The notes beneath the pieces were generated by a model. It saw only the letters and a list, made by a program, of their open reading frames with translations. It was not told the origin of the DNA and did no database searches. DNA of 57,796 nt, taken from assembly GCA_031391655.1 (NCBI GenBank), contig JANMUO010000306.1:1-57796 (forward strand), read 5' to 3'. Positions within the stretch are counted from its first letter, which is position 1. The number at the start of each line of letters is the position of its first letter. The translations under genes and the position numbers were made by a program. Origin of the DNA: Betaproteobacteria bacterium (GTDB lineage Bacteria; Pseudomonadota; Gammaproteobacteria; Burkholderiales; SG8-39). Below are positions 1,845 through 46,437 of this stretch, piece by piece.

Positions 1845-1848
1845 GCGC

Positions 1849-3225: not shown

Positions 3226-3267
3226 GCTTTTCTCCTGCGGGGAATCGCTCCCACTATACTTGTGCGC

Positions 3268-12938: not shown

Positions 12939-12941
12939 GGC

Positions 12942-14117
12942 CTACTTCTTCGCCGCCTTGGCGTCGGGCGCGGCGGGCTTCTGCGCCGCCGGGTCGGCAA
13001 CCTTCACCGGCGCCCCGGGGCCGATGCGCATCACCCCGTCGATGATCACGCGCTCGCCGGTCTTCAGGCCGCCGGTGATGATCCAGTCGCTGCCCGCCCA
13101 TTCGCCGACTTCCACCGGGCGCGCCTGCGCGGTGCTCTTTTCATCCACCACGTACACGAACTTGCCCTGCGGTCCCTCGAGCACCGCGCGCTGCGGGATC
13201 AGCACGGCGTTCGGGCGCGTCGCCCCGGTGAGCGTCACGCGCACGAACTGCCCCGGGCGCAGGCGCCCTTCGGGGTTGGGCAGCTCCGCGCGCGCTTCGC
13301 TGGTGCCGGTGCTGCCGGAAATGCGGATGTCGGAAAACGCCAGCCTGCCGGTACGCGCGTACACGCTCCCGTCGGCGAGCCGCAGCACCACGTCGAAGCG
13401 CCCGTCCTTGGGCAGCAGCAGGTGCCCGGCGTCCGACTCGCGCTGCAGGCGCAGGCGCTCGTCGTCGGGAATGCCGAAATTGACCCAGATCGGGTCGACT
13501 TGCGTCACGGTGGTGAGCAGCACGTCGGGACCGGACACCAGCGAGCCTTCAGAGCGCTGCGAGCGGCTGGTGACGCCGCTCGCGGGAGAGTCGACGCGGG
13601 TGTACTCCAGGTTGAGACGCGCCTCGGTGAGCCGCGCGCGCGCCGCCTTCAGGTCGGACTCGCCGATGGTTTCGGCGGACGAGGCGTCGTCGTACTCCTT
13701 CTGGCTGATCGCGTTCTCGGTCAGCAGCGGCTTCAGGCGCCCCGCGTTGCGCTTGGCCTGCTCGAGCCGCGCCGCCGCGCCGGCGGCATCGGCCTCGGCG
13801 CGCGCGAGCGCGGCCTGGAACTGCTGCGGGTCGATGGTATAGAGCGATTGGCCCTGCTTCACCTGGCCGCCTTCGACGAAGTTGCGCTTCAGCAAGATGC
13901 CGGTGACGCGCGCGCGGACTTCGATCTCGCGCGAGCCCGCGGTCTGCCCGGTGTATTCGAAGGGCGCGAGCACGGCTTTCGGCTGCACCGTGATGATGCC
14001 GACTTCCGCGGGCGGCATGCCGCCCGGGGGTCCGCCGTGGCCTCCGCCGGAGGGGCCGCAGGCGGCGAGGAACGCGGAAGTCAGCAAAAGCAGTGTCAGT
14101 GTCAGTGTCAGGCGCAT
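12942..14117 (-). CDS. RND efflux periplasmic adaptor (membrane fusion protein, AcrA/MexA-like)
   Basis: 391 aa with a lipoprotein signal LLLLTSAFLAAC, followed by coiled-coil, lipoyl and beta-barrel type sequence. It lies 3 nt upstream of the pump gene. Confidence 0.9.
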   Translation of the reverse strand: MRLTLTLTLLLLTSAFLAACGPSGGGHGGPPGGMPPAEVGIITVQPKAVLAPFEYTGQTAGSREIEVRARVTGILLKRNFVEGGQVKQGQSLYTIDPQQFQAALARAEADAAGAAARLEQAKRNAGRLKPLLTENAISQKEYDDASSAETIGESDLKAARARLTEARLNLEYTRVDSPASGVTSRSQRSEGSLVSGPDVLLTTVTQVDPIWVNFGIPDDERLRLQRESDAGHLLLPKDGRFDVVLRLADGSVYARTGRLAFSDIRISGSTGTSEARAELPNPEGRLRPGQFVRVTLTGATRPNAVLIPQRAVLEGPQGKFVYVVDEKSTAQARPVEVGEWAGSDWIITGGLKTGERVIIDGVMRIGPGAPVKVADPAAQKPAAPDAKAAKK

Positions 14118-22316: not shown

Positions 22317-23186
22317 ATGCGGCAGCCCGAGGAAGCCCTGGAGGTGAGCGCGCCTCTGGCGCGGCGGCTGGCCCCACAGCTTTGCCGCGTGGATCCCGCG
22401 ACTGGCGAGAACTGCGCCTGGAACCACGGCTTCTGGCAGTACATGCGGCTGCTCGGCCTCGCCATCGCGCCAGAACACCACGCGGCGTTCTACCGCGAGT
22501 CGCTGCGCGGGCTGCTCACCGCCTCCCCCCGCGTGCTGGTATCCGGCACTTCCGACTACGCCATGCTCGCGCTGCTGATCGGCCTCGCCCGCTCGCAAGG
22601 CGGCATGCCCGCCATCACGGTGCTCGACCGCTGCGAGACATCCCTCATGCTGAACCGCTGGTACGCCGAGCGCGTCGGGACAACGATCGCAACCCGCTGC
22701 GCCGACATCCTCGCGCCGGCGAACGATGCGCCCTACGATTTCATCTGCACGCACGGATTCTTCGGCTACTTCGACGCAGCGCAGCGGCGTGCCCTGGTCT
22801 CCCGCTGGCAGGCGCTGTTGCGCCCGGGCGGGCGCGTGATCACGGTCAACCGCCTGCGCACGCCGGCTGCGCCCGAGCGCACCGGCTTCGACGGCCGCCA
22901 GACCGACGCGTTCGCGCTGCGGGCCCGCGCAGCGGCCGAGGCGCTGACCGGTGGCATCGACCTTCCCCCGCCGGTACTGGAGACCGCGGCGCGCGCATAC
23001 GCCGCGCGCCTGGGTGTGTACACGCTGCGCTCGATAGAGGAGCTGCGCCGCCTGTTCGAGGACGCCGGCTTCGTCCTCGACGTCCTGCACTGCGAGCCGA
23101 TCGCCGTGCCCGCGCGCCACCCCGTGGACGCGCCGACGGTGCCGGGCGGCGACGACTACGTGCACGTCGTCGCTACGCGGCGCTGA
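22317..23186 (+). CDS. Class I methyltransferase-fold protein with atypical SAM-loop
   Basis: Distal 289 aa of track ORF 22101..23186. It has post-I-like ITVLDRCETSLML, an acidic loop CADILAPANDAPYDFIC and WQALLRPGGRVIT. Motif I reads VLVSGTSDYA instead of GxGxG. Confidence 0.55.
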   Translation: MRQPEEALEVSAPLARRLAPQLCRVDPATGENCAWNHGFWQYMRLLGLAIAPEHHAAFYRESLRGLLTASPRVLVSGTSDYAMLALLIGLARSQGGMPAITVLDRCETSLMLNRWYAERVGTTIATRCADILAPANDAPYDFICTHGFFGYFDAAQRRALVSRWQALLRPGGRVITVNRLRTPAAPERTGFDGRQTDAFALRARAAAEALTGGIDLPPPVLETAARAYAARLGVYTLRSIEELRRLFEDAGFVLDVLHCEPIAVPARHPVDAPTVPGGDDYVHVVATRR

Positions 23187-24537
23187 GTTCCGAGAGGAAC
23201 TCCTCGTACTTGCCGCCCGCGCTGCGCGGAATCGACTCGCAGTAGGCGAAACGCAACGTCAGGCCCGGGGGCAGCATGGACAGCACGCGTTCGCGGAACG
23301 CGGCCTCTTGCGCCGGCGACAGCGGCACCACGGCCACCAGGCGCGCTTCGACCAGGTCGTGCGCCTTCTGCACGAACTGGTACTGCCGCACGGGAGCCGT
23401 TTCCATCAACGCGCGCGTGCCGAACACGGGCCAGTACTTCTTTCCGTCCGCGGTGACGAGCGTGTTGCGTACGCGTCCAAGGATGCGCCGCAACACCGGC
23501 AACCCCCGCCCGCAGGCGCAGGGTTCGCCGACTTCAGCGTAGTCCCCGATGTCGTAGCGCACGAGCGGCATGGCAAAGCTGTGCAGCGGCGTCACCACCA
23601 CGCGGCCGACCATGCCGGGACTGCAGGGCGCGCCGGACTCGTCCAGCACCTCGAGCAGCACGCCCTCGGACTGCACGTGGTAGTGCTCGCCCGTCGGGCA
23701 CTGCAGTGCGAGGTAGCCGGTCTCGCTGGCCGAGTAGACGTCGGTGACCGGCACGCCCCAGGCTTCGCGCGCGAGGGCGCGCAGCTCGGGCGAAACGGAT
23801 TCCGCGAGCGTGCGCACTTCTCGCAGCCCCTCCAGGCGCAGGCCGCGTGCGAGCGACAGGCGCGCCAGCTCCAGGGCCAGCGACGGATAGGTGAACAGGT
23901 AGGCCGGCTTTTCGCGCAGCAGCCAGTCGACATGGCGCTCGGCGTCGTCGCGGATCGATGCGCCGAGCGAACGCCCGGTCGCGAATAGATTCGCCGTCGC
24001 CGAGCCCCAGTTGGCGACATCGGAGGCTTCCGTCTCGCGGCGAATCACCGCCAGCCTGGCGCTGAGATCGCGGCCGTGCCAGTCGTGGTCGCGCAGGGTG
24101 AATGCATTCCAGTACAGCCCGCCGAGTGGGGTGGCGAGGAAGCGCACCGGGGCGCCGGTGGAGCCGGAGGTGCGTCGTTCCTCCGGCACGCCGTGCGCCT
24201 GGAGCGGATTTGCGCTGCGCAGTCTCTCGTAGCTCGCCTGCAGCTCTCCCCGTTTGAGCAACGGCAGCTTGCGCAACCGCTCGTAAGTCAGCGGGGCCAC
24301 GGGATCGTAGGCATTCGCCCACTGCTCGCGATACCAGGGCACGGTCGCCTGCGCGTGGCGCAACAGCACCTCGAGCTGGCCGAGCTGGAGCGCGAGCAGC
24401 TCCTGCGGCGCAAGCCACTGAGTGCGCTCGAGCTGCCAGAGCACCGCGAGCACCGTCGCACCGCTTGGCGCCGGGATCGCAGGCCACGCCGCGCCGGGAA
24501 CTGCGCCCTGCACGCGCCAGGGAGGGCTGCGCGTCAC
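23173..24537 (-). CDS. PaaK/F390-synthetase-like adenylate-forming ligase (ANL superfamily)
   Basis: Distal 454 aa of track ORF 23173..24951, from a GTG at 24537 (GTGA overlap with the upstream stop). It has the AMP-binding motifs RRTSGSTGAPVRF and DVYSASETG. Confidence 0.75.
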   Translation of the reverse strand: MTRSPPWRVQGAVPGAAWPAIPAPSGATVLAVLWQLERTQWLAPQELLALQLGQLEVLLRHAQATVPWYREQWANAYDPVAPLTYERLRKLPLLKRGELQASYERLRSANPLQAHGVPEERRTSGSTGAPVRFLATPLGGLYWNAFTLRDHDWHGRDLSARLAVIRRETEASDVANWGSATANLFATGRSLGASIRDDAERHVDWLLREKPAYLFTYPSLALELARLSLARGLRLEGLREVRTLAESVSPELRALAREAWGVPVTDVYSASETGYLALQCPTGEHYHVQSEGVLLEVLDESGAPCSPGMVGRVVVTPLHSFAMPLVRYDIGDYAEVGEPCACGRGLPVLRRILGRVRNTLVTADGKKYWPVFGTRALMETAPVRQYQFVQKAHDLVEARLVAVVPLSPAQEAAFRERVLSMLPPGLTLRFAYCESIPRSAGGKYEEFLSELSAA

Positions 24538-25724
24538 GCCGCCCGCCTCGCGATCGCCGCTTCGATGTGGCCGATCATGGTCGCGAGCACCGTCGCGGGG
24601 TCTTGTCGCTCGTAGCGGCGCGCGAACTCGCGCGCTTTCTCCGCGTACGCCGCCTTGCCCGCCAGGTCGCCGAGCGCCCTGGCGTAGTCGGCGTCCGGCA
24701 CCTGCGGATCCGTCCCCAGTCCCGCGCCAAAGCGCACCACGCGACGCATGATGAGGAACTGCTCGAGCTGCGTGGGCAGCAGAAGCAGCGGCTTGGCGCC
24801 GAGCAGCGCCTGCGCCGTCATCTGGTGGCTGGCGTGGCACACCACCACATCGGCCTGCGGCAGCAGCCGCGACACCGACATGGGCTCCCCCGTTACGCGC
24901 ACCGATCCGCCCTCGTGCTTGCGCACGAGCTCGGCATTGGCATTGCGGCACAGCATCAGCGTCGGCGCTTCCAGCCTGCGCAGCGCCCCGAGCAGCGGAT
25001 CGAGCCCGTTGAAATAGTTATAGAGGTAGGCGAACACGCGCGGCCCGCGGCCGGCGGGCCAGTCCGGCACGGCGCTGCCCTCGCCAGACCTGGGCACGCC
25101 GTAGTAGTCGGCCGGCCCCCGCTCGGGATAAATGTCCAGCTCCGGATAGGTGAGCAGCATCGCGCGCCCCGAGAACAGCTCGCCGATGGTGCCGATGCGC
25201 GCGGCGCCGTGCGCGGACAGGACGGCGTTGATCGCCTCCAGCACCGCGCCATCGGCCGCCTCCAGCTCCGCGCGCGGCGCCGGCTCCCAGTGGCGCAGGG
25301 GCGGCGAGGGCATCGTCGGCGGCGGCACGTGGAAACCTTGCGAGATCTCGAAGCTCGGGACGCCGAGCGTGCGCGCCGCAATATGCGCCGCTGGCGACAC
25401 GTTGGCCACCACCGCCTGCGCATCGGCGAGCCGCTCGCGCCACGCGTCAATCAGCTGGCGCAGGCTGTCGTGCAGGTGGTAGCCGAAGTTCTGCAGGATC
25501 TGGCCAAAGTTTAGCGGGTTGGCGTACTTCGCCGGGCCGACCCAGATCGGCGCGGCGGCGCGCGGGATCTCGGCCGCGCCGGCCAGGTCGGCACCGGATT
25601 TCGGTTCGCGCAGCAGGAAGCTGACGTCGTGGCCGCGCGCCTGCATGGCGCGCGCGATGGGCAGCAGCGTGGTGACGTGCCCGGTGTGGCCGCCCAGCTC
25701 CCACGCAAAAACGATCTTTGCCAT
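24534..25724 (-). CDS. GT-B fold glycosyltransferase (GT1/MGT-like)
   Basis: 396 aa. The N-terminus MAKIVFAWELGGHTGHVTTLLPIARAMQARGHDV is typical of GT1/MGT enzymes. The C-terminal donor-binding region VVCHASHQMTAQALLGAKPLLLLPTQLEQF is a divergent version of the HHGGxGT...P...DQ motif. Confidence 0.65.
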   Translation of the reverse strand: MAKIVFAWELGGHTGHVTTLLPIARAMQARGHDVSFLLREPKSGADLAGAAEIPRAAAPIWVGPAKYANPLNFGQILQNFGYHLHDSLRQLIDAWRERLADAQAVVANVSPAAHIAARTLGVPSFEISQGFHVPPPTMPSPPLRHWEPAPRAELEAADGAVLEAINAVLSAHGAARIGTIGELFSGRAMLLTYPELDIYPERGPADYYGVPRSGEGSAVPDWPAGRGPRVFAYLYNYFNGLDPLLGALRRLEAPTLMLCRNANAELVRKHEGGSVRVTGEPMSVSRLLPQADVVVCHASHQMTAQALLGAKPLLLLPTQLEQFLIMRRVVRFGAGLGTDPQVPDADYARALGDLAGKAAYAEKAREFARRYERQDPATVLATMIGHIEAAIARRAA

Positions 25725-25730
25725 GCCCCT

Positions 25731-25761
25731 GAAATAAGAAAGCCCGCGCTGGGCGGGCTTT
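25731..25761 (-). terminator. Rho-independent terminator downstream of the FecR-like gene
   Basis: On the minus strand, AAAGCCCGC-CCAGC-GCGGGCTTT is followed by CTTATTTC. It lies 22 nt after the stop at 25783 and immediately upstream of the glycosyltransferase start. Confidence 0.6.
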
Positions 25762-25782
25762 CATCTTATCCCGGCGGCGGGA

Positions 25783-26487
25783 TCAGATCGCGCAGGAATC
25801 CGCCTGGCCACCGCTGATGCTGGTCGGGTTGGCCGAACCGAAGCTCTGCGGCGGCTTGATGCTGGGAAGATTGGGCGGCGGCGGCACGATCACCGGGGGC
25901 AGGTTCGCGTTGCTGGAGTACGCCGTCTGTCCGGCCGCCGCGAGCAACTCCTGTCCGCCCGAGGTCAACACCACCTGGCCGTCGGCCACCACGACGTATA
26001 CACCGGGCGCGGGGCTGCTGCCGCCCTGTCCCTCCGGCACCTCAATCGCGTTGAAGTCGGTGCCTCGGATGCCCACGGTGGCCGTCGCCGTGCGCAGCTT
26101 GTAGGCATCGCGATTGCCGCGCTTGCCGACCAAGCCGGTCACCGCCCGCATGCCGCCCTTGAGCAGGGCGAACACGAAACTGTCCTTCTGCGGCTCGTTC
26201 TCCGAGAATTCGTACCCCTCGATTCGGATCTGCGTGTTCGGGCGCAGCGTGATCTGCCCGCCGTCGGTGAGCTTGATCTGCGCGTAGCTGTCGCGCTCGG
26301 TGGAAACCACGTCGCCCTGCAGCACCTGCGACTTCTCCGACAGGAGGCGTACCGTGCCGTCGGGACGCTGCACGTGCAGCGTGCCCGACAGGTGCTGCAC
26401 CGAGCCTTGCGACCAGGCGAGCAGCGGTGCCAGGAGCGCCGCCGCGAGCGCGGCCTTGAATGCACTCATCCGCATCAGGCTTTGCAT
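25783..26487 (-). CDS. FecR domain-containing periplasmic protein
   Basis: 234 aa with signal peptide [22 protein letters not shown]. The FecR-type core is [55 protein letters not shown]. The C-terminus is Pro-rich. Alternative ATGs at 26475 and 26469 overlap or abut the upstream stop. Confidence 0.75.
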
Positions 26488-29400
26488 GAACTGAACTCCT
26501 TCTTGGACTTGTTCTCGTCCTTTTCCTCGTCCTCGCCGCCCACGAAGTCCGTGGACTCGTCGAACGCTTTGACCGTTTGCTGGAAGTTCGCATTGACCTC
26601 GGGAATCGACAGCGGGTCGAGGATCACGATGGTGCCGAAGTAGTCTGACATGGAGTTGAAGGTGCCGGTTCTTCCCGCAGCAGCGCCCGCGCCAGCGCCG
26701 ACTCCGCCATCGGTTCCGCCAACTCCACCCGCGCCACCCTGGACATTGAACTGCGTGCCCGCCAGGACGAAGATGATGCCGTCGCCAATCTGGGTATCGG
26801 TCACGCTGCTGGCATCGAGGTAAATGAACCCGGCGTTTCCGCCGTTGCCTCCACTGCCGCCCACATTCGCCCCATTCCCGGCCCCGCCGTTACCGCCCGC
26901 ACCGCCTGCGGCATTCACGGATCCGAACATGGTCATATTCGGGGTGCCGATAAGGTCCGCGGTGCCGCCTGCGCCGCCTGTGCCGCCGTTGCCCGCGGGA
27001 CTCGTCGCGGCGTTGCCGTTGCCGCCCGCACCGCCGGAAACGTCGATCGACACGGTGCCGAGTGCGCCGCCGTCATTGATCGATATCTCGCCGGTGCCCT
27101 GCACGTTGACGCGGCCGCCATTGCCGCCGCTGCCGGCAGTACTGCCCGGTGTGCCATTCGCAGAGAGGCTCTGGTTCAGGACGTCGCCGCCCTTGCCGCC
27201 ACCGGCCAGGATCGGCCCGCTGACGTCGATGGTTGAGCCGGATATGTACACGCCGCTGCTGAATGCGCCGCCACCGCTGCCGCCCCAGCCTCCGGAAGTT
27301 AAGGAAGAGCCCATCGCCCCGCTATTGCCCCCATTGCCGCCGGAGATGTCGATCATGCCCGTCGAGACGGGGCCAGGAATGGATACCTGCCCGCCGTAGC
27401 TTGAGGCGTTCAGGGACACCGAACCGCCCATGCCGCCCATCCCGCCGCTGGAATTACCGCCGCTATCGGATATCGTGCCGCCCGTGCCGCCATCGGCGCC
27501 GCGCGCCATGATGGCGCCTGTCGCGATCGACGTCCCGGTGATGCTCACCGAGCCGCCGTAATAGCCGTTGCCGCCATAGCCGTAGAGGACTGCAGCTCCG
27601 CCATTGCCGCCCCGGCCGCCAAGGATGTCCATCGCGCCGGTCGTGACCGGGCCCGTCGAATTCAGATTGATACTCGAGCCACGGCCACCCGATCCTCCGT
27701 TGGCATAGATGCCGGTCCCTCCGCTGGCGCCGTCGCCGCCGCGCCCGGCAATCGGGCCGATATCGATGGAACTCGCGTTCACGACGTCAAAGTAGCCGGC
27801 ATATCCCCCGCTGCCGCCCCAGGCATACTGGGTTGCCGTGCCGCCTGCGCCCGCGTGACCGCCCGAGACATCGGCCGACCCGATCGAGACTGGCCCCGTT
27901 GCGGAAACATAGACGTTGGTGCCTCGACCGCCGCTGCCGCCGTACCCATAAGGGAAAACCCCTCCCGTGGCGGTGCCGCCCGCCGCTCCGTTGCCGCCCC
28001 GGCCAACGATCGACGAGATACTGACCGCAGTGCCGAACACGTCGAGGTAGCCGCCGTCGCCACCGCTGCCGCCCCAAACGTACTCTGCGGCAGCACCCCC
28101 CACCCCGCCGTGCGCGCCGGACATATCGATCGAGCCGATCGACACCGGGCCCGACAAAGAATTCAAATAGAGGGAACTGCCCTCGCCGCCGTCACCGCCG
28201 TTGGCGTACAGGTAACCGCTCGCGTTGCCTCCCGCGCCGCCATTGGCGCCGCGGGCAACGATGGCTCCGATGTTCACTCCGGTGGCACCGCGAATCTGGG
28301 TGTAGCCCGCGGACCCGCCCCACCCACCGATCGAATAGGAGCCATAGGCTGAACCGCCGGCGTTGCCCCCTGCCCCGCCAGAATTGTCGATGGAGCCGAT
28401 GGCAACGGAGCCCGCGTCCGAATACAGTTGCAGGCTTCCGCCCCAACCGCCGTCGTTGCCGTATGCCGATCCGTCCGCGCCGTTCCCGGCATTGCCGCCG
28501 CGCGAGACGATTCCGCCTATTCCAATCGAGCCATAGGACCAGACTGAAATCTGGCCCGCGGACCCGGCCTCCGTCCCAGAAATAGCTTCCGTAACGGATC
28601 CGCCATGGCCGCCGCTGGTATTGCTCACGCCGGCGACGGAAACGCTGCCGGCAAGCGGTGCATTCACGAAACTGCAATCACCGCTGCAATCATCGCCGCC
28701 AATCAAAACATACCCGCCCCATCCCCCGCTGTGATCCTGGCCCGGAACTGCCGTACCGCTGGCGCCGTTGCCTCCCGTGGTAAGGATATCCCCGTTCACC
28801 CTGACGGCCGTACCGGCAAAGCCGTCCTGGGCAGTGCGCACCAGACTTACGCCGCCGCCGTCTGAGCCGGCGCTAAAAGTTTCCATGCATCCGTCATTGC
28901 ACGTATCGACCGCAACGAGGCTGCCGGGCGCGCCGCGTGTGTCGATCATGCCGTTGACGCTGATTACGCCGTTGTTCGTCGCGAGCCGCACGTAGCCACC
29001 GTCCCCATGAACCGGATGCGGCGACGCTGTCACGATCGAAGCTGTCGTGATATTGCCGGACGCCGTCACGGACACGCTGCCGTTGCCGAACGTGTCCCCG
29101 GGATTCAGCGTGCTGCTCGTGCTGATCAGCCCGCCGACCGAAATGGCGCCGTTGGCTGCGTTCACGACCACGGATCCGCCGCCGGTGGTGATGCCGCCCG
29201 TGGCGACATTCCCATTGGAGGAAGCTAGGTTCACAGACCCGGCGTTGCTAGATCCGGAAGTATTGATGTTGCCTAGGTTCACCGCCCAGCCCTGCGCGTC
29301 CAGCGACCCGCCACTAGTTGTGATGTTGCCGCCGCCAGGGGACGAGGTAATGGCTCCAGTTGTCGCGCTGCCCCCGTAGGCCACCGCCCCGGGTGCCGCA

Positions 29401-30992
29401 GCAAGCAGCGTCAAGTTGCCGATCGTACTGATGCCATTGACACCGAGATTAATGTTGTTCCCGGCCTCCATGCTCACGCTTCCGCCATAGGTCAGAGTGA
29501 GGCTGGCCTGCAGATTGATGTCGTTGGTGGCTTGTATTTGAATGAAGCCATTGCCGGCCATCGCATTGTTGATCGCGTCCACTCCGACGCTCGAGACCAC
29601 ATCCGGCCAGCAGATCATGTTGGCCCCACACGCGCCGTAGGCCTCCAGCCCACCCGCCACGATGGTGATGTCCGTGGGGTCGAGCAGCCAGTTGCCGCCG
29701 ACGCCGTTCGGCGCACTGACATTGACCGAGCCGAACGCCTGCAGCGCGCCCTTGCCGGAAGTCTCTACGAAGCCGCCGTTGCCCGACTGCGCCCCGCCCT
29801 TGACGCTGATCGCGCCGTAGAACTCCGTGTCCTTGTCCGCCCACACGATCACCCGCCCGCCATCGCCCGTGGTCATCGCATCCGCGCGAATGACCCCGTC
29901 CGTTCCAACATACGTACGCTCGGCGTTCTGCACCGCCGCGTTCTTGCCCTGGTAATCCCCGCCCACCAGCACCGTGCCGCCGCCGGTATCGCCCGACGCA
30001 TCGATCACGCCGTGGCCCACGACCCCGACGCGCACGCCCAGCGCCTGGACCTCGCCGCCTTTGCCGGCCGAACCCTTGGCTTCGACCGTTCCACCAACAA
30101 GATTCGTCCCGCCCTCAGCCTGCAACAGCACCTTGCCGCCGCTCGCGCCGTTGGCCGTCACCGTGCTGCCCGCATCCAGCGTCAGGTCCCTGCTCGCCAC
30201 CAGGCGGATCTCCCCACCCGGGCCCGCAACGACGCTGTTGGCCGAAATGGTTCCCGAATTGCGCACCAGCGCGCCGAACATGCCGATGCGGCCACTGTCG
30301 GCGATGATGTTGCCGATGTTGAGCGCACTGTCGGTGGCCGCCGCCAGCTTCACCGTGACAAACGGCGTGTTGGCGTCGACCAGTTCCACTTCCTTGCCCG
30401 CCGCGAGGACCACCGCGCCCTGCGGCGTCTGGATCAGTCCGTTGTTCTCGACCGTCGGGGCGACCAGGTAGACGCGACTGCCGGCCACGGTCTGGATGAT
30501 GCCGTTGTTGACCACCGCGCCGGCGCCCGGCACTTCCGTGAAGCGCAGGCGGTTGGCGAGGAAGTCCTGGTCCGAAAGCGCCAGGCTCGAGGCCACCATG
30601 CCGGCGGTGTCGATGCGCGAATTGGCGCCGAAAATGATGCCGTTCGGGTTGATGAGGAACACTCGCCCGTCGGACTTCAGCGCGCCGAGGATGCTGGAGA
30701 GCTCGCTGCCGGTGACGCGGTTGAGCACCGCCAGGTTGGCGAACTGCTGGAACTTGGTGATCTCGTTGATGCCGATCGAGAAGCCGTTCCAGTTGATGAT
30801 GGCGTTGCCGCCCGCCGTGTTCGTGATGGTGAGCGCGCTGGTGCCCAGGCCGCTGAAGCCGACGCCGCCGTGGACGACGGTCGGCACCGAAGGATTCGCC
30901 AGGAGCAGGGGTGCGTGGAGGGCAAAACAGGCGGCAACCGACACCGCGATCTGCTTTGGTTTGAGGACTGATTCCGGCTTAGCGCGTGTCAT
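26475..30992 (-). CDS. Two-partner secretion exoprotein (TpsA, filamentous hemagglutinin N-terminal domain) with glycine-rich repeat C-terminal half
   Basis: Track ORF 26475..31010, which has a GTG at 31010; the ATG at 30992 gives [35 protein letters not shown]-domain motifs are [26 protein letters not shown] and [12 protein letters not shown], followed by [10 protein letters not shown]...[10 protein letters not shown]. The distal region is made of GGxGG repeats. Confidence 0.9.
26805..28532 (-). repeat. 13 tandem degenerate coding repeats (39-52 aa each) inside tpsA
   Basis: By hand alignment, 576 aa divide exactly into 13 units. The unit pattern is x-(V/I)-S-I-G-x-I-x-x-(R/S)-G-G-x-G-G-x-G-G-x-x-x-x-Y-x-x-G-G-x-G-G-x-G-x-x-x-x-(L/V), with alternating IVxRGG and IDxSGG flavours. 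Confidence 0.8.
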
Positions 30993-31051
30993 GTTCCATT
31001 CTAGGCCCACCGAGTGAGCGCAGCCTTGTTAAAAATTGCACAGAGTACGTA

Positions 31052-32629
31052 TCAGAAGGTGTAAGCGATGCCAAAGTGGGCCCGCCCCTTGCCGCTGTCC
31101 CGGGTCCCCGCGTTGTTGAGGACCACGGCGTAATCGGCGCGCAGCGAGATGCTGCGGCCGCGATTGGCCCGCAAGCCAAGTCCGGCGCTGCTCATGCCGT
31201 TCTCTTCCAGCCGGACCGGTTGGTTGTCCCGTCCGTGGCCCGCGTCGTAGAAGGCCAGCATGCGGGCACGCCAGTCGGCGCCGATGGAGGGCCCGATCTC
31301 CGGCCCGTAGGCCTCGAGGGACACCCGGTGGCCATTGTCGTTGGCCACCTCGCGCTCGTTGAAGCCGCGCACGCTGTTCTGGCCTCCCAGGCCGTACTGC
31401 TCGCCCGGCACGAGGGCGTTACGCGTGTACTGCCCGTCGATGGCGAAGCGCAGTATTGCGTCCCCGCCGATGGCGTGCGAATAGGCGGCGCCGGCGCGCC
31501 AGATGCGGAAATTGGCGGCGGCGCCCGGCCTCGCCTGCTCGATGGCGGCCTGCGACGCATCGCCCTCATCGGTCGGCATGTTTTGCGCGACGCCAAGCGT
31601 GAAGCTGAAGTCGCGCCCCGACTCGGCGAAACGCCCGAAGTAGTTGAGCAGCAGCGGCTGGGTGGTAACGTCCGGCACCAGGGTGGTGCTGCCGCCGATG
31701 AGCACCACGTCGTTGGTGAACGCCTTGAACTCGAAGCCGAGCGACATCTTCTGCTCGTAGGCGCCATAGCGCGTCAGGATCTGCGTGTAGCGCGCGCCGA
31801 GGATGGTGCCCGCGCCCGCCACCGAGAACAGGTTCTGCACGGTGCCGGACTCGACGTCCGAGTATCCGCCGTAGGCCTCCAGCACTGCGTTCCACTCGTA
31901 GAACGGCACGCGGTAGCCGACGCCGAAAATCTGCACGTCGTCCCACTGCGTGGGCGAGGTGATGAACTGCACGTTGATCACCCGGTCCTTGTTGTCGAAG
32001 TTCGAGTTCACCACGCCGAACCCAGTGCGGTAGTAGCCCGTGGTGCTGTTGCCGGTGTTGTCCAGGAACACGGTAACGCGGTAAGGGTCGTCGTCCGTGA
32101 CCTTCACCGAGGCATCCACCTTGCCGATTTCCTCGGTGGACTCGAGCACCACGCGCTGCTGGCGCACCGGGTTCTCGTTGGCGAGCTGCACGTTTTCGCC
32201 GATGCGCTTGGTGTTGGGCGCCTCGCCCTCACGCAGCGCCGGCAGGCTGGCGCGCACGTTCTCGTCGTTATAGAAGCGGTTTCCCTCGATCTTGACGTTG
32301 CGGATGCGCGCTTCGATCACCTGCAGCCGCACCTGGCCGGCGCGTATGTCCTGTTCCGGGATCAGCACCCGCACCGCGTTGTAGCCCTTGGCGCTGTAGT
32401 GGTCCTGCAGGGCCTCCAGCGCGCGCTGGATGTCGCCGAAATCCTTCTGCTTGCCGACAAAGGGCTCCACCAGCGCATGCAGTTCGTAAAGCTCGAAAAG
32501 GGTGTTGCCCTCGATGTCGAAGCTGGTGATGTCGAAACGGGGAATCGGGGCGGGAGCGGGGGCCTGCGCGAAGGCGGCGATTCCCCACGACAATAGAACA
32601 GCAACCGCTAGCGTACGCATCCCCGTCAT
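31052..32629 (-). CDS. TpsB outer membrane transporter (ShlB/FhaC/HecB family, POTRA + beta-barrel)
   Basis: Track ORF 31052..32737 trimmed to the ATG at 32629. It has signal peptide MTGMRTLAVAVLLSWGIAAFAQA and POTRA-type IEGNTLF and VIEARIRNVKIEGN. The C-terminal barrel ends in HFGIAYTF. Confidence 0.9.
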   Translation of the reverse strand: MTGMRTLAVAVLLSWGIAAFAQAPAPAPIPRFDITSFDIEGNTLFELYELHALVEPFVGKQKDFGDIQRALEALQDHYSAKGYNAVRVLIPEQDIRAGQVRLQVIEARIRNVKIEGNRFYNDENVRASLPALREGEAPNTKRIGENVQLANENPVRQQRVVLESTEEIGKVDASVKVTDDDPYRVTVFLDNTGNSTTGYYRTGFGVVNSNFDNKDRVINVQFITSPTQWDDVQIFGVGYRVPFYEWNAVLEAYGGYSDVESGTVQNLFSVAGAGTILGARYTQILTRYGAYEQKMSLGFEFKAFTNDVVLIGGSTTLVPDVTTQPLLLNYFGRFAESGRDFSFTLGVAQNMPTDEGDASQAAIEQARPGAAANFRIWRAGAAYSHAIGGDAILRFAIDGQYTRNALVPGEQYGLGGQNSVRGFNEREVANDNGHRVSLEAYGPEIGPSIGADWRARMLAFYDAGHGRDNQPVRLEENGMSSAGLGLRANRGRSISLRADYAVVLNNAGTRDSGKGRAHFGIAYTF

Positions 32630-32723
32630 CGCTCCCCGAGAAAACCTGCCCGATGAACTGCTTGTTGGTTTGCGGCGGATTCTCCCACGCGTTTTTGGGG
32701 GCGGCAAGGGATAATCCGCGGCG

Positions 32724-33557
32724 ATGGACAGGAGCAAGCTCGCCTATTGGGACCAGCGCGCGACGCGCCCTGCCGGCCGGCCACTGCCGGCGCCGATCCG
32801 GCCGGCGGGCGAGGACATCGAGTTCTGGGAATCGCGGCTGCGCGCGCTTTGCAGACAACGTAGTAAATTGCAAGCGTTGCTGCTGGGCGTCACGCCGGCG
32901 CTGGCAACGCTGCGCTGGCCCGTGCCAACGCAGTTGCTGGCGATGGATTGGTCGGGCGGCATGATCCGCCGCGTGTGGCCCGCGGCCGGCTTGCCCGGAT
33001 TCGCGGCGCCGGTGCGCGGCGACTGGCGCCAGATGCCCCTCGCCGACGCCAGCCGCGACCTGGTCATCGGTGATGGCTGCTACGCCGCGCTCGCCACCTT
33101 CGCCGATTGCGAAGCGCTCAACGCGGAAGTCCGCCGCGTGCTGCGCCCGGCCGGCCTGTACTGCCTGCGCTGTTACCTGAGGCCGGAAGAGCCGGAACGG
33201 CTGGACAGGCTGTTCGCCGAGCTGCACGCGGGGTGCATCGGCGAGTTCGAGATCTTCGTCTGGCGGCTGGCCATGGCACTGCACGGACCGGGGCGGGTGG
33301 GCGTGCGCATGCAGGAGGTGTGGCGCGGCTGGCACGCGCACGTGCCCGACACCCCGGCCCTGCTGGCGCGGCTCGGCTGGAGCGAGCAGGCCTATGCCAA
33401 CATCGCGCAGTGGCGCGACTCGCGCCTCGAGATGCCGCTGCCCACGCTGTCCGAGGCGCGCGCGATGCTCGCGCCGCGATTCGAGATCCTCGAGTGCAGT
33501 TTCGGCGGCTACGAGATGGGCGACCGCTGCGCGCGCCTGGTGATGCGCAAGCGCTAG
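32724..33557 (+). CDS. Class I methyltransferase-fold protein with atypical SAM-loop
   Basis: 277 aa with LLAMDWSGGMI, VRGDWRQMPLADASRDLVIGDG and EVRRVLRPAGLYCL. Motif I reads ALLLGVTPALA rather than GxGxG. It is divergent from tpsB. Confidence 0.55.
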   Translation: MDRSKLAYWDQRATRPAGRPLPAPIRPAGEDIEFWESRLRALCRQRSKLQALLLGVTPALATLRWPVPTQLLAMDWSGGMIRRVWPAAGLPGFAAPVRGDWRQMPLADASRDLVIGDGCYAALATFADCEALNAEVRRVLRPAGLYCLRCYLRPEEPERLDRLFAELHAGCIGEFEIFVWRLAMALHGPGRVGVRMQEVWRGWHAHVPDTPALLARLGWSEQAYANIAQWRDSRLEMPLPTLSEARAMLAPRFEILECSFGGYEMGDRCARLVMRKR

Positions 33558-34370: not shown

Positions 34371-35006
34371 CTAGCCCGCCAGGTCGTCCAGCGCCGCGTC
34401 GAGGTGGCCGCGCTCGCCCCAGGCGAGCACCTGCCAGCCCGCCGCGCCCGCCTCGACCCAGTTGATCGTCGCGTTGGCGATCTCGAAATCGCGCGGCGAC
34501 GTCAATCCGCTATCGCGCGCGTGCCGGTGCACCATCTCCAGCACCCCGCCATGCGTGAACACCAGCACCGACTCGCCCGCATGGCGCGCCGCGATGGCGC
34601 CCACGCAGGCGATGGCGCGCTCGTTGAACGCCAGCAGGCTCTCGCCGCTGCCGAAGTCGTACTCCGGCTCCTTCGCCTTGAAGCGCGCGAAATCCTCCGG
34701 GTGCTTCTCGCGCGCCTCGGCGTAGGTGAGCGTCTCGAACTTGCCGTAGTGGCGCTCGCGCAGCCCCGCGTCGAGCCGCGGCGCCAGGCCGAGGGCGCTC
34801 GCCGCCGGCGCGGCGGTCTGGCGCACGCGTGCGAGGTCGCTCGAGTACAGCGCCGCGAAGCGCATCCCGCCGAGCGCGGCGCCAACGGCGCGCGCCTGCG
34901 CTTCGCCGACTGCCGACAGCGGCACGTCGGTCTGTCCCTGCACCCGTCCCTCGGCGTTCCACGCGGTCTCACCGTGACGGATTAAGCAAATCCTCGCAGA
35001 AGCCAT
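34371..35006 (-). CDS. Histidine phosphatase family protein (phosphoglycerate mutase-like)
   Basis: 211 aa with the catalytic RHGETAWN motif, a later LVFTHGGVL, and ERHYG. Confidence 0.85.
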   Translation of the reverse strand: MASARICLIRHGETAWNAEGRVQGQTDVPLSAVGEAQARAVGAALGGMRFAALYSSDLARVRQTAAPAASALGLAPRLDAGLRERHYGKFETLTYAEAREKHPEDFARFKAKEPEYDFGSGESLLAFNERAIACVGAIAARHAGESVLVFTHGGVLEMVHRHARDSGLTSPRDFEIANATINWVEAGAAGWQVLAWGERGHLDAALDDLAG

Positions 35007-35044
35007 TCTTTCCTTCCGTTGGACGCCGGTATCATAACGGCGCC

Positions 35045-36130
35045 GTGCCCGAATCCGTCCCCCACGCGCAGCGCCACGCCCCCAGCCTCGAGCAGGAGGA
35101 GCTGCGCGGCATTTCGCGCACGGTCGCCGAGATCGAGTGGCTGCTGCTGATCCTGGTGCTGGTGTACATGGTGTTCGGCTGGCCGATCGCCGAGGGCGAG
35201 CCGGCCCTGTCGATGGCGATGTTCTTCTTCGCCGCTTTTGTCATGAGCTTCCGCTACGCGAACTTCTACAAGCACGAGTCGCGCTGGAAGATCGCAGTGG
35301 AGACCCTGGCGATGATCGCCTTCATCACCTGGGTGCTGTGGTTCACCGGCGGGCTGGCGAGCCCGCTGGTCAACGCCTACCTGCTGGTGGTGATCACCAG
35401 CGCGCTCACGCTGGGCAAGACCGTGACCCTGGCCGAGGTGGCGGTGATCGGCGCCTGCTACCTGTTCCTCGACTGGCAGGTGGGCGGCAAGGACCTCCTG
35501 CGCCTGCCGTACTGGGGCAACTACGTCGCGCAGCTCGCACCGGTGCTCTTGGTGGCCTACATCACCACTATGTTCTCGGCCGACATCCGCTACGGACTGA
35601 ACCGCGCCAAGCTGCTGTCGGAAACAGACGAGCTCACCGGCATCTACAACATGCGCGGCTTCGTGGTGATCGCCAACCGGCTGTTCGCGCAGGCGCAGCG
35701 CTACGAGCGCCCGGCCAGCTTCCTGATGGTGGATTCGGACAACCTGAAGCAGGTCAACGACCAGCACGGCCACGAGGCCGGCAACCTGCTGCTCAAGCAT
35801 GTGGTGAAGGCAGTACAGGCGCAACTGCGCTTCACCGACGTGCCGGCACGCTACGGCGGCGACGAGTTCGTCGTCATGCTGCCGGACACCCCGGCGCGCG
35901 GGGCGCTCGAAGTGGCGGAGCGCATCCGCCACGCCATCGAAGAGGCGACGTTCGCCGCCGGCAGCGGCCGCGTGGCCTGCACCGTCAGCATCGGCGTGGC
36001 GAGCTACCCGGAGGACGGGCGCAGCATGGACGCCCTCCTCGCGCGTGCCGACCGCGCCCTGTACCTCGCCAAGGAAGGCGGCAGGAACCGCGTCGCCCGC
36101 TTCCAGGCGGAGCCCGCTGCGTCCACGTAG
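35045..36130 (+). CDS. Membrane-bound diguanylate cyclase (GGDEF)
   Basis: Distal part of track ORF 34829..36130, from the first start (GTG at 35045) beyond the divergent phosphatase gene. Several TM segments are followed by LTGIYNMRGF, the I-site RFTD and an intact RYGGDEF. Confidence 0.85.
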   Translation: MPESVPHAQRHAPSLEQEELRGISRTVAEIEWLLLILVLVYMVFGWPIAEGEPALSMAMFFFAAFVMSFRYANFYKHESRWKIAVETLAMIAFITWVLWFTGGLASPLVNAYLLVVITSALTLGKTVTLAEVAVIGACYLFLDWQVGGKDLLRLPYWGNYVAQLAPVLLVAYITTMFSADIRYGLNRAKLLSETDELTGIYNMRGFVVIANRLFAQAQRYERPASFLMVDSDNLKQVNDQHGHEAGNLLLKHVVKAVQAQLRFTDVPARYGGDEFVVMLPDTPARGALEVAERIRHAIEEATFAAGSGRVACTVSIGVASYPEDGRSMDALLARADRALYLAKEGGRNRVARFQAEPAAST

Positions 36131-43794: not shown

Positions 43795-45087
43795 CTAGCG
43801 CGCGGTTATGCGGGTGTTGGCGAGCACCAGCCGGTCCACCAGGTTGCGCACCAGCGCGCGCGTGAGCTGCAGCTGCGCGCCGCCGCTCATCTGCTGCAGC
43901 GCCGCGGGCTCGAATTCCGCCAGCAGCAGCTTGGTCATGGACTCGACGTTGGCGTGGCGCGGCAGCTCGCCCCCCCAGATGTAGGCCATCTCGCCGAAGC
44001 ACTCGCTGTGGTTGACGACGTTGAGCAGCCGCCCGGCCTTGGTCACCTTCACTTCGCCCTCGGCGAGGAAGAAAAAGCTCGTGCCCTGGTCGTTTTCGCG
44101 CACGATGGTCTTGCCCTTGTCCACGCGCGACCACTTGCCGGCGTTCACCAGCTCCCAGATCTCCGCGTCGGCGAGCCCCGAGAGCATTTCCACGCGCTTG
44201 AGCGCGACGTACTTCTCGGTGTCGGGGATGGCATTGGCGGGCAGCGACAGCCGCACCACCTTGGAGAGCTCGAGCGCGAACTCCGACCAGGTCGGGTAGC
44301 GGCTCTCGGGCTTCTTGCGCATGGCGCGCAGGATCACCGCGTCGAGCTCCTTGGGCAGGTCGGGGCGGATTTCGCTCGGCGGCAGCGGCTCGAGCTCGGT
44401 GATCTTCTTGAGCAGCGCGTCCAGGTTCTCCGCGCGCAGCGGCCGCTGCCCGGTGAGCATCTCGTAGAGCACGGCGCCGAGCGCGTACATGTCGCTGTGG
44501 TGGGTGAGCGTGGCGCCGGCGATCTGCTCCGGCGACATGTAGTAGGGCGAGCCCATCATCTGCGTCTGCACGACGTGGCTCTTGCGCAGGTAGGCGGCGC
44601 CGAAATCGGCGATCTTCACGTCGGTGCCCCTGGCGATCATGATGTTGGCGGGCTTGATGTCCCGGTGCACGATGCCTTCCCGGAAGGCATAGTCGAGCGC
44701 CCCGCACACCTTGAAGCCGATCTGCAGCACGTCGGCCACCGGCAGCAGCTTGTCGGGCTTGGTGTAGGCCGAGAGGTCGCCGCCCGTCACCAGCTCCATG
44801 GCGATATAGCCCGAGTCCTCGCCGACCACCGCGTCCAGGATCGAGACGATGTGGGGATGCTTCAACTTGCCGGCGAGCGATGCTTCGTTGAGGAACTGCG
44901 AGCGGTACACCGTGCCGAACTCGGGGTCGCGGAACACCTCGGGCTCGATGGTCTTCAGCGCCACCTCGCGGCCGGAGAAGGTGTCCTTCGCCAGGTACAC
45001 AGTGCCGGTGGCGCCCTTGCCCAGCATCTTCTGGACGTCGTACTTCCCGACCTGCAGGCTCAGGCCCAGATCCATCGTTTCGGACAC
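43795..45087 (-). CDS. Hanks-type Ser/Thr protein kinase fused to a C-terminal cyclic nucleotide-binding domain
   Basis: 430 aa from a GTG start with a GGAGGA RBS. Kinase motifs are GKGATGTVY, VALK, HRDIKPANIMI, DFG and YMSPEQ. The C-terminal CAP_ED-like part has FFFLAEGEVKV...FGEMAYI...PRHANVES. Confidence 0.85.
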   Translation of the reverse strand: MSETMDLGLSLQVGKYDVQKMLGKGATGTVYLAKDTFSGREVALKTIEPEVFRDPEFGTVYRSQFLNEASLAGKLKHPHIVSILDAVVGEDSGYIAMELVTGGDLSAYTKPDKLLPVADVLQIGFKVCGALDYAFREGIVHRDIKPANIMIARGTDVKIADFGAAYLRKSHVVQTQMMGSPYYMSPEQIAGATLTHHSDMYALGAVLYEMLTGQRPLRAENLDALLKKITELEPLPPSEIRPDLPKELDAVILRAMRKKPESRYPTWSEFALELSKVVRLSLPANAIPDTEKYVALKRVEMLSGLADAEIWELVNAGKWSRVDKGKTIVRENDQGTSFFFLAEGEVKVTKAGRLLNVVNHSECFGEMAYIWGGELPRHANVESMTKLLLAEFEPAALQQMSGGAQLQLTRALVRNLVDRLVLANTRITAR

Positions 45088-45204: not shown

Positions 45205-46437
45205 ATGGCGCACAGGGAAGTACCGGTCGAGCAGCTCGAGTTCGGCATGTTCGTCGCCAGGCTCGATCGGCCCTGGACCGAGACGCCGTTCGTGTTCCAG
45301 GGCTTCGTGCTGAAGACCGAGCAGCAGCTCGTCGCGCTGAAGAAATACTGCAAGACGGTCTACGTCGACCCGGAGAAGATGGAAGTGGTGGTGGCGCCCA
45401 GGCTCCTCAGCCTGCCGCCGTCGGCGCGCTCGGTCATCGCCGAGCAGTCCAAGGAGAAGGTGCGCGGCAGTGTGGTGTACAGGGAGCTCGCCTCGGTGGA
45501 GGACGAGCTGCCGCGCGCGCGCACCGTGTTCACGCAGACCACGTCGGTGGTGCAGTCCATGTCGCGCGCGGTGATCTCCGGCAACGCGCTCGATGGCGGC
45601 CGCGCCAGGCAGGCCGTGACCGAAATCACCGACAGCGTGGTGCGCAACCCCGACGCCATGATGCTGCTGGTGACGATGCGCGAGCGCGCCGAGCAGACCC
45701 TCAACCGCTCCACCCAGGTATCGGTGTACATGACCGTCTTCGGACGCTTCCTGCAACTGGAGCGCGAGCGCCTGGAACTGCTTGGCCTCATCGGCCTGCT
45801 GCAGGACGTGGGCATGTTGAAGCTCCCGCCGGGCATGCCGGCCCGGCGCAGCGACCTCGATGGCGCGGAGGAAGAAGTGTTCAAGACCCACGTCACCCAC
45901 AGCGTGGAGATCCTCTCCCAGACCGCCGGCCTGCCCCCGGAGCTGCCCGGCCTCGCCTCGCTGCACCACGAGCGCTACGACGGCAGCGGCTACGCGCGCG
46001 GCCTGAAGGGCAGCGCCATCTCGCAGACCGGCGCCATCGCCGGCATCGTCGACACCTTTGACATGCTCACCGCGCCCGCGCCCTACGGCATGCAGATGCC
46101 GCCCTCCAACGCGCTCAACGTGCTGTTCATGAACCGCGGCACCCAGTTCCACGCCGCGCTGGTGGAGCAATTCATCCAGTGCGTGGGCGCCTTCCCGGTG
46201 GGCAGCGTGGTGGAGCTGAACACCGGTGAAGTGGGCGTGGTGATCACGCAGAACCTGGTCAAGCGCCTGCAGCCGCGCGTGATGGTGGTGCAGGACGCCC
46301 GCGGCAACCCGATCCACCCGCACAAGATCCTCGACCTGGTGAAGGAGCCGATGGCCACGCCGGAGGAGCCCTACCGCATCCGCCGCACCCTCGACCAGAC
46401 CACCGTGATGATCGACACGCGAGAGCTGTTCCTGTGA
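45205..46437 (+). CDS. DUF3391 + HD-GYP-like domain protein with degenerate catalytic motifs
   Basis: Distal 410 aa of track ORF 43756..46437. The N-terminus is VPVEQLEFGMFVARLDRPWTETPF. The HD-GYP region reads LLQDVGMLKLP (QD in place of HD) and HHERYDGSGYARGL (GYA in place of GYP). Confidence 0.8.
   Translation: MAHREVPVEQLEFGMFVARLDRPWTETPFVFQGFVLKTEQQLVALKKYCKTVYVDPEKMEVVVAPRLLSLPPSARSVIAEQSKEKVRGSVVYRELASVEDELPRARTVFTQTTSVVQSMSRAVISGNALDGGRARQAVTEITDSVVRNPDAMMLLVTMRERAEQTLNRSTQVSVYMTVFGRFLQLERERLELLGLIGLLQDVGMLKLPPGMPARRSDLDGAEEEVFKTHVTHSVEILSQTAGLPPELPGLASLHHERYDGSGYARGLKGSAISQTGAIAGIVDTFDMLTAPAPYGMQMPPSNALNVLFMNRGTQFHAALVEQFIQCVGAFPVGSVVELNTGEVGVVITQNLVKRLQPRVMVVQDARGNPIHPHKILDLVKEPMATPEEPYRIRRTLDQTTVMIDTRELFL

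Follow-up and report, generated by a model that had tools for sequence, protein, structure and literature searches.

A two-partner secretion locus with a conserved FecR-like third gene, and a possible trans-acting periplasmic anchor for its exoprotein

The window analysed here, a stretch of 57,796 nucleotides with a G+C content of about 68% (positions 1 to 57,796 of contig JANMUO010000306.1, GenBank assembly GCA_031391655.1, Betaproteobacteria bacterium), contains a two-partner secretion (TPS) locus with a third gene. The locus is a compact trio on the minus strand, in which the transporter gene tpsB is followed by the exoprotein gene tpsA, by a gene for a FecR-like protein and then by a terminator. 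An original prediction, made from the sequence alone, had described three tightly spaced same-strand genes, a TpsB with a POTRA domain and a barrel, and a terminator, and each of these elements is present where it had been placed. The trio comprises the following features.

31052..32629, minus strand: tpsB, Omp85-type TPS transporter (Pfam)
26475..30992, minus strand: tpsA, 1505-residue exoprotein, stop codon within the coordinates (Pfam; starts of homologues)
30213..30812, minus strand: TPS secretion domain of TpsA, residues 61-260, with NPNGI inside
29661..29777, minus strand: TpsA family signature, GGFVETSG and a 10-residue segment, residues 406-444 (alignment A2)
26733..28532, minus strand: Gly-rich repeats of TpsA, residues ~821-1420 (repeat layout; AlphaFold2 model)
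26478..26606, minus strand: charged tail of TpsA, residues ~1463-1505 (AlphaFold2 confidence; composition)
25783..26487, minus strand: FecR-like gene, 234 residues (Pfam FecR)
25738..25762, minus strand: intrinsic-terminator-like hairpin, GAAAGCCCGC..GCGGGCTTTC and then a T-run, which closes the three-gene unit

The tpsB open reading frame (ORF; 31052..32737) has its likely start at ATG 32629 (MTGMRTLAV...), which gives a protein of 525 residues that comprises a signal peptide, a ShlB-type POTRA domain and a barrel of the ShlB/FhaC kind (Pfam POTRA_2 1e-20, ShlB 4.5e-26, Omp85 6e-9). TpsB contains no cysteine. Within the tpsA ORF (26475..31010), homologues share the start at ATG 30992 (MTRAKPE...), which yields a TpsA of 1505 residues and a tpsB-tpsA gap of 59 nt, in agreement with the roughly 1500 residues and the 41-59 nt that had been predicted. 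Pfam and NCBIfam recognise a single domain in TpsA, the TPS/NPXG domain (Pfam TPS 3.4e-28, residues 61-260; NCBIfam adhes_NPXG, TIGR01901, 3e-18), in which NPNGI occupies residues 115-119 (30636-30650). GGFVETSG lies at 29754-29777 and its 10-residue partner segment at 29661-29690; along with NPNGI, the 13 Gly-rich units and the charged tail, all of them noted in the original prediction, these could be located. The columns of the signature are invariant or nearly so in alignment A2, which comprises 30 diverse homologues, and the signature forms the end of a conserved N-terminal module of ~440 residues. With an Omp85-type TpsB and an adjacent TpsA that carries the TPS domain and NPNGI, the locus is by its gene content a type Vb system, and export of TpsA is predicted.

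Comparison with PDB sequences matched TpsA residues 24-655 to EtpA (8vba, 5.8e-52) and HMW1 (2odl), and more weakly to HxuA. Because these 655 N-terminal residues are clearly EtpA/HMW1-like, TpsA belongs to a known adhesin-type clade. The ~13 Gly-rich units that follow at residues ~821-1420 measure 40-43 residues each and contain 31-33% Gly. An AlphaFold2 model of the last 500 residues (predicted local distance difference test, pLDDT, 85.6; predicted template modelling score 0.84) shows a regular solenoid with a disordered end of ~43 residues (pLDDT <50 at residues 458-500 of the model), and the chain ends ...KKEFSSCKA. Taken together, TpsA is, as judged from its sequence, an EtpA/HMW1-like beta-helical exoprotein that continues into a Gly-rich solenoid fibre and a charged tail of ~40 residues. 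In the predicted solenoid, the long Gly-rich stretches are not beta-strands, and its only fold neighbours in the PDB are the springtail and snow-flea antifreeze proteins (7jjv, 2pne), which are polyproline-II structures and both weak matches. The modelled solenoid may thus represent an undescribed fibre fold rich in polyproline-II or polyglycine-II.

The original prediction had also held that the exoprotein carries no toxin, pretoxin motif or immunity ORF, and our searches agree. Pfam and NCBIfam detected no toxin domain, and the only VENN string is a conserved VENNG in the TPS domain (residues 181-184), which is not a pretoxin motif. Likewise, a match between the C-terminal half of TpsA and a characterised toxin or adhesin family was sought by Pfam and by PDB sequence and fold comparison, and none was found. 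A contact-dependent inhibition system of the CdiA/CdiB/CdiI type was rejected on these grounds, as no immunity-like ORF is present and the downstream gene is the conserved FecR-like gene.

The FecR-like gene starts at ATG 26487, which has an AAGGAG Shine-Dalgarno sequence 8 nt upstream, and its start overlaps the tpsA stop (TGA, 26475-26477) by 13 nt. The overlap had been anticipated, as had the TGATG at 26473-26477, which is present. On this arrangement of signals, the FecR-like gene is translationally coupled to tpsA. Its product consists of a signal peptide (residues 1-~26), a beta-sandwich (~28-190; Pfam FecR 1.8e-13), a Pro-rich linker (~196-216) and a C-terminus that reads ...GGQADSCAI, in which the lone Cys232 (codon 25792-25794) is followed by AI. 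The signal peptide is of the cleavable kind (A-x-A/S, then QG), and the protein contains neither a transmembrane helix nor a cytoplasmic anti-sigma domain. By these sequence features the FecR-like protein is soluble and periplasmic. Neither an extracytoplasmic function (ECF) sigma factor nor a TonB-dependent transducer is encoded among the annotated neighbours of the cluster (about 20.8-37.8 kb).

Both proteins end in a lone cysteine three residues from the C-terminus (SSCKA in TpsA and DSCAI in the FecR-like protein), as had been predicted. The cysteines of TpsA comprise the close pairs C455/461, C698/702 and C769/773 and the lone C1503 (codon 26484-26486), which is the sole cysteine in the last 730 residues. 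TpsA homologues keep the N-terminal ~440 residues and then diverge wholly in sequence and in length, from 800 to >3000 residues. Nevertheless, a cysteine occurs within the last six residues in 107 of 120 homologues, mostly 1-2 residues from the end, and those that lack it are mostly fragments. The terminal cysteine column is >= 90% conserved in the TpsA alignments, and the tails are 31% charged compared with 9.5% in the body. Among TpsA proteins with a single tail cysteine, the mature chain contains an odd number of cysteines in 88 of 92 (binomial p about 1e-21), and the remaining cysteines form close pairs with a spacing of 1-9 residues, which leaves the terminal cysteine unpaired. Free thiols are normally avoided in the oxidising periplasm.

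The same pattern holds for the FecR-like protein. A search with its sequence gave 875 matching proteins, of which the best 120 show 62-94% identity; the best matches are from a metagenome (94%) and from metagenome-assembled genomes of Burkholderiales/Gammaproteobacteria (77%). All 120 of these close homologues contain a single cysteine and end in ..C-x-x(-x), and the distance of the cysteine from the end is 1-4 residues in 25 aligned members. Searched with the family profile, 1.84 billion representatives yielded 928 clusters (50% identity) at E <= 1e-30. Among the best 150 of these 928 clusters, 134 have a cysteine within the last six residues, typically in the context [EQ]-C-x-[VI]-[RQ], and 119 of these 134 Cys-ending representatives have an odd cysteine count, the exceptions being mostly truncated. 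The C-terminal tails of both TpsA and the FecR-like protein are disordered or extended in AlphaFold2 predictions.

The third gene is conserved together with the other two. In a pattern scan of one genome per species of the Genome Taxonomy Database (GTDB), relatives of the FecR-like protein are encoded in at least 581 GTDB species genomes. Most hosts belong to the Burkholderiales or to other Betaproteobacteria (Massilia, Undibacterium, Noviherbaspirillum, Sulfuritalea, Methylophilaceae, Nitrosomonadales), with two Nitrospirota. Of 79 loci fetched on the basis of the FecR-like gene, 58 have >= 3 kb of upstream sequence, and in 51 of these a large ORF with a C-terminal cysteine lies <=3.5 kb away; in 34 loci that ORF is directly adjacent, in the order TpsB-TpsA-FecR seen in the window. 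We also selected 80 metagenome loci from the side of tpsA (alignment A2 and the patterns DGGRVIVWA and GNGGFVETS). Among complete tpsA genes with a single tail cysteine and sufficient flanking sequence, 30 of 35 have a FecR-like gene in the cluster, in the orders B-A-F, A-F-B, A-B-F and B-F-A, and the other five tpsA genes are orphans, stand in tandem or lie at contig ends. The original prediction had named conservation of the FecR-like gene beside homologous tpsA genes, and the neighbourhoods of TpsA homologues with the signature, as the places to look, and both selections bear out the association (51/58 and 30/35). The trio is also kept in more distant clusters, such as P0109 and P0057. Conservation of the trio despite shuffling of gene order suggests a functional three-gene system, and because the arrangement and both cysteines recur over hundreds of loci, the association is not due to chance.

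In a second group of loci (L014, L016-L032, L035, L036, L044 and L054; for example L017:6439-8015), a huge TpsA (>2000-3000 residues, ..PSCN) is separated from the FecR-like gene (..ECVVRR) by one or two cyclic-nucleotide-binding regulators of the Crp/Fnr type. This block occupies a fixed chromosomal site upstream of ftsK-lolA-rarA-serS. At L034, L037 and L039 the same site holds a regulator and a FecR-like gene, with no tpsA within 10 kb. An association of FecR and TPS genes with CHAT domains was not seen, as none of the annotated neighbourhoods examined contains a CHAT domain.

The tail types of TpsA co-vary with the presence of the partner. Relatives with two or three tail cysteines (for example ..DCLVIDTPAGRRVLNRCF and ..CTGGG...RCTSRGCF) have a FecR-like gene nearby in 0 of 5 cases, compared with 30 of 35 for single-Cys tails (Fisher p = 4e-4). 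A subgroup with three-Cys tails (..KKPVCTGGG...RCTSRGCF) comprises P0094, P0101, P0105, P0108, P0112 and P0120, with loci L082, L094 and L098, and lacks a neighbouring FecR-like gene.

From the gene content, its conservation and the unpaired cysteines, we infer a disulfide between the two proteins, its topology and its consequence. Specifically, we propose that the TpsA fibre is held in the TpsB pore by a trans-acting, disulfide-linked periplasmic stopper with a FecR fold, a proposal that we consider evenly poised between right and wrong. TpsA proteins pass through TpsB in an extended state. The fibre would thread through TpsB from N- to C-terminus, and oxidation in the periplasm would join its tail cysteine by a disulfide to the cysteine at the C-terminus of the FecR-like protein. 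The folded FecR domain would be unable to cross the TpsB pore and would act as a stopper, or retention module, in trans, such that the fibre would stay anchored at the surface with its charged tail spanning the pore. Release could then occur by reduction of the disulfide or by cleavage of either linker. With one cysteine in the tail of TpsA, none in TpsB and a lone one on the Pro-rich linker of the co-translated partner, this arrangement would be the most economical.

The FecR-like protein itself offers further leads. An AlphaFold2 model built from a 121-sequence alignment is all-beta with a disordered C-terminus (pLDDT 61), and its best PDB fold neighbours are the anti-sigma periplasmic signalling domains of PupR (6ovk) and BDI_1681 (4m0n). 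In the model, the first ~60 structured residues match 5ix9, annotated as 'Cell surface anchoring domain', with a root-mean-square deviation of 1.3 Å over 61 columns and a template modelling score of 0.74 (normalised to the target). The NCBIfam model retention_LapA (NF033682) matches all 25 of 25 aligned family members at residues 27-93, each below threshold (best E 2e-9). The score of the window protein is 33 bits where the cut-off is 50, and its domain does not belong to an RTX adhesin. This likeness to retention modules is a reproducible lead, not proof. The family profile found no match among PDB sequences. Distant members of the family mostly measure 450-500 residues and contain three FecR modules in tandem, or five in some cases. 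Two FecR-family members, P0344 and P0349, lack the terminal cysteine and carry a C-terminal OmpA-like 8-strand outer-membrane barrel instead, which places that end of the FecR-like protein at the outer membrane.

Several points weigh against a disulfide-linked stopper. The TpsA-FecR disulfide, secretion and retention are drawn wholly from comparison, and each lone cysteine could instead form a homodimer, bind a metal or cofactor, or join another partner. The low confidence of the FecR-like model (pLDDT 61) makes its fold matches leads only, and the sub-threshold likeness to retention modules may reflect just a generic FecR-type beta-sandwich. The co-variation of tail type and partner is confounded by common phylogeny. 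Furthermore, three-Cys tails are also odd in cysteine count, which leaves one cysteine unaccounted for and indicates that viewing a multi-Cys tail as a self-contained hook is too simple. Seven of the loci selected by the FecR-like gene have no tpsA within 10 kb (L034, L037, L039, L040, L047, L061 and L074), and several tpsA genes with a single C-terminal cysteine are orphans, which indicates that pairing is not universal at each locus.

The orphan tpsA genes that encode a single C-terminal cysteine and have no adjacent FecR-like gene are those of L080, L100, L125, L164 and L165. Where upstream sequence exists (the L125 locus is truncated on the 5' side), they lack tpsB as well: none occurs in the L100 locus, and none lies within 5 kb of P0090, P0115 or P0119. 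Presumably, such genes rely on partners encoded elsewhere. Trypsin-like PDZ proteases are encoded near the orphan tpsA in L100 and L164.

Past the terminator, the FecR-like gene is followed by two genes for putative accessory enzymes.

24534..25724, minus strand: GT1-like (MGT/EryCIII-like) glycosyltransferase, predicted to be cytoplasmic (weak Pfam, NCBIfam and PDB matches)
23173..24537, minus strand: PaaK/CapK/F390-synthetase-like adenylate-forming enzyme, start uncertain (NCBIfam match below threshold)

The match of the adenylate-forming enzyme is to DVU1553_fam_AMP (1.7e-35, below the family threshold). Linkage of GT1-like and PaaK-like genes to FecR-type TPS clusters recurs at L001, L002, L004-L007, L009, L010, L013, L064, L079, L084, L085, L089, L092, L093, L119, L128 and L167, and the genes sometimes lie on the opposite side or strand of the cluster. 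EtpA and HMW1 are glycoproteins with a glycosyltransferase encoded alongside, and because of this precedent the GT1-like and PaaK/CapK-like enzymes may modify the fibre, by analogy with HMW1C and EtpC.

Elsewhere in the window, a GGDEF diguanylate cyclase gene (34829-36130, plus strand) is situated 2 kb upstream of tpsB, with synteny kept in the closest relatives (L001, L083 and L006), and a GGDEF-EAL protein is encoded farther from the cluster (46434-48200, plus strand). A fusion of a Ser/Thr protein kinase with a cyclic-nucleotide-binding domain is encoded at 43795-45087 (minus strand), 12 kb from the cluster; at L080:3382-4668, a gene with the same architecture lies directly upstream of an orphan tpsA of the family (P0090). 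The window also encodes a 1430-residue M1-family aminopeptidase (1537-5829, plus strand), which has an N-terminal extension of ~600 residues with no Pfam match, and a resistance-nodulation-division (RND) efflux operon (OEP-AcrB-MFP; 8384-14117, minus strand). The aminopeptidase and the RND operon appear to be ordinary context, seemingly unrelated to the TPS locus.

The tight coupling and conservation of the FecR-like gene would also fit a periplasmic partner that acts non-covalently on the TpsA tail or the POTRA domain, as a chaperone, as a secretion cofactor or in quality control, with the cysteines serving another use, such as homodimerisation of each protein or the binding of a metal or cofactor. 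FecR/PupR-type domains, to which the fold matches point, are protein-protein interaction modules, and the versions with three to five FecR repeats, which dominate the family, would suit a scaffold. However, a single unpaired cysteine at the extreme C-terminus of both proteins over very large divergence is left unexplained by such a role, as is the missing partner of TpsA variants with multi-Cys tails, and we regard this explanation as unlikely. The original prediction had suggested a surface fibre or sensor system. Its first part, a non-toxin fibre with a FecR-like partner, is supported by every in-silico test, and anchoring through a TpsA-FecR disulfide, also part of it, is consistent with the comparative data; the sensor part fares poorly. 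A FecR-like protein that passes information on the fibre (its tension, binding or loss) from the surface to a regulator would be in keeping with the modelled fold, which resembles the anti-sigma signalling domains of PupR (6ovk) and 4m0n, with the Crp/Fnr-type regulators between tpsA and the FecR-like gene in one large subgroup, and with the GGDEF, EAL and kinase/cyclic-nucleotide-binding genes in the wider window. Yet a protein with a cleavable signal peptide that lacks both a transmembrane helix and an anti-sigma domain could not by itself signal across the inner membrane, the Crp/Fnr regulators are cytoplasmic, and no ECF sigma factor or TonB-dependent transducer occurs among the annotated neighbours, which makes a sensor quite unlikely. 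For the same reasons, a FecR anti-sigma factor, of which only the FecR domain is present, was rejected. Signalling and anchoring are compatible with each other.

The recurrence of the GT1-like and PaaK/CapK-like genes beside clusters in distant lineages raises a further explanation, in which both cysteine motifs are sites of a common covalent modification (lipidation, or linkage to glycan or peptidoglycan), perhaps made by these enzymes, with no bond between the two proteins. The nearest solved relatives of TpsA, EtpA and HMW1, are glycosylated and have a glycosyltransferase encoded with them, which would be in line with such a modification. The GT-like protein has no signal peptide, though, which indicates a cytoplasmic location, its gene sits after the terminator, and many clusters have the cysteine pair without these genes nearby. 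Furthermore, the cysteine contexts differ between the proteins (C-K/N/S in TpsA, and C-x-V/I-R/Q, usually preceded by E/Q, in the FecR-like protein), and we know of no bacterial system in which a cysteine so close to a free C-terminus (1-4 residues) is modified in the periplasm. We therefore regard a shared modification as highly improbable.

Returning to the disulfide-linked stopper, its extension to the family would define a widespread three-partner form of type Vb secretion, in which a FecR-fold protein bonded C-terminus to C-terminus with TpsA serves as a detachable retention plug for TpsB, display and release are controlled by redox state or proteases, and the versions with three to five modules are perhaps a periplasmic handle by which the condition of the fibre is reported. 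We hold this wider proposal tentatively, a little short of an even chance. To our knowledge, retention and release of TPS exoproteins are known in only a few pathogens (HMW1, HxuA, CdrA and FhaB), and the locus points to an undescribed and apparently common retention route in environmental Betaproteobacteria and beyond. If the proposal is true, a third obligatory partner would be added to 'two-partner' secretion, a large set of orphan 'FecR domain-containing' proteins would gain a function, and the FecR fold would be tied to the retention modules of adhesins. The two cysteine codons would also provide a simple handle on fibre display, and cultured hosts, such as Massilia and Undibacterium, are available. 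Neither a FecR-like third partner of TPS systems nor the pair of terminal cysteines turned up in our literature searches; co-mentions of FecR and TPS were limited to the unrelated VreR/PUMA3 system or to genome surveys, and source annotations of the relatives read only 'FecR domain-containing protein'.

The FecR/PupR anti-sigma regulators have the Pfam FecR domain and the fold in common with the window protein. Those regulators contain an anti-sigma domain and a transmembrane helix, whereas the window protein has neither; it is 234 residues long and combines a cleavable signal peptide with a Pro-rich linker and a terminal cysteine. The HMW1A/HMW1B(/HMW1C), HxuA/HxuB and EtpBAC systems resemble the window locus in type Vb export of a non-toxin beta-helical adhesin. 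In HMW1 and EtpBAC the third co-encoded gene is a glycosyltransferase, and a GT-like gene recurs at clusters of the window type as well; however, the window enzyme is GT1-like and not of the HMW1C/EtpC type. Unlike HMW1, HxuA and EtpA, the window passenger is a Gly-rich solenoid without a matching family.

HMW1 and HxuA are locked in the pore of TpsB by a small C-terminal element with a disulfide, which remains periplasmic (PMC5422565). That anchor is a cis loop of two tail cysteines, whereas the TpsA of the window has one, with the second located on a FecR-fold protein. A cis anchor of the HMW1/HxuA/CdrA type was ruled out for the window TpsA, given the single cysteine in its last 730 residues and the odd counts in homologues. 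In Pseudomonas aeruginosa, a C-terminal cysteine hook anchors the adhesin CdrA in CdrB (PMC7616799; see also PMC4694147). As in our proposal, the C-terminus of a TPS adhesin is held in its TpsB by cysteine chemistry, and retention is regulated. The hook of CdrA is intramolecular and the adhesin is released by the protease LapG under control of cyclic di-GMP and LapD, whereas the window TpsA shows no second tail cysteine and no TAAG-like site. In type I-secreted RTX adhesins of the LapA/MpIBP kind, a folded periplasmic beta-sandwich is unable to cross the outer-membrane pore and holds a giant adhesin at the surface, and the N-terminal part of the FecR-like protein shows a likeness to this module, below threshold in sequence and in a low-confidence model in fold. 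The LapA/MpIBP module lies within the adhesin chain and acts at a TolC-like pore, whereas the putative module of the window would sit on a polypeptide of its own, bound to the fibre through a disulfide, at an Omp85-type pore. By analogy, the proposed device would thus be the trans counterpart of both the cis disulfide loop of HMW1, HxuA and CdrA and the N-terminal retention module of LapA.

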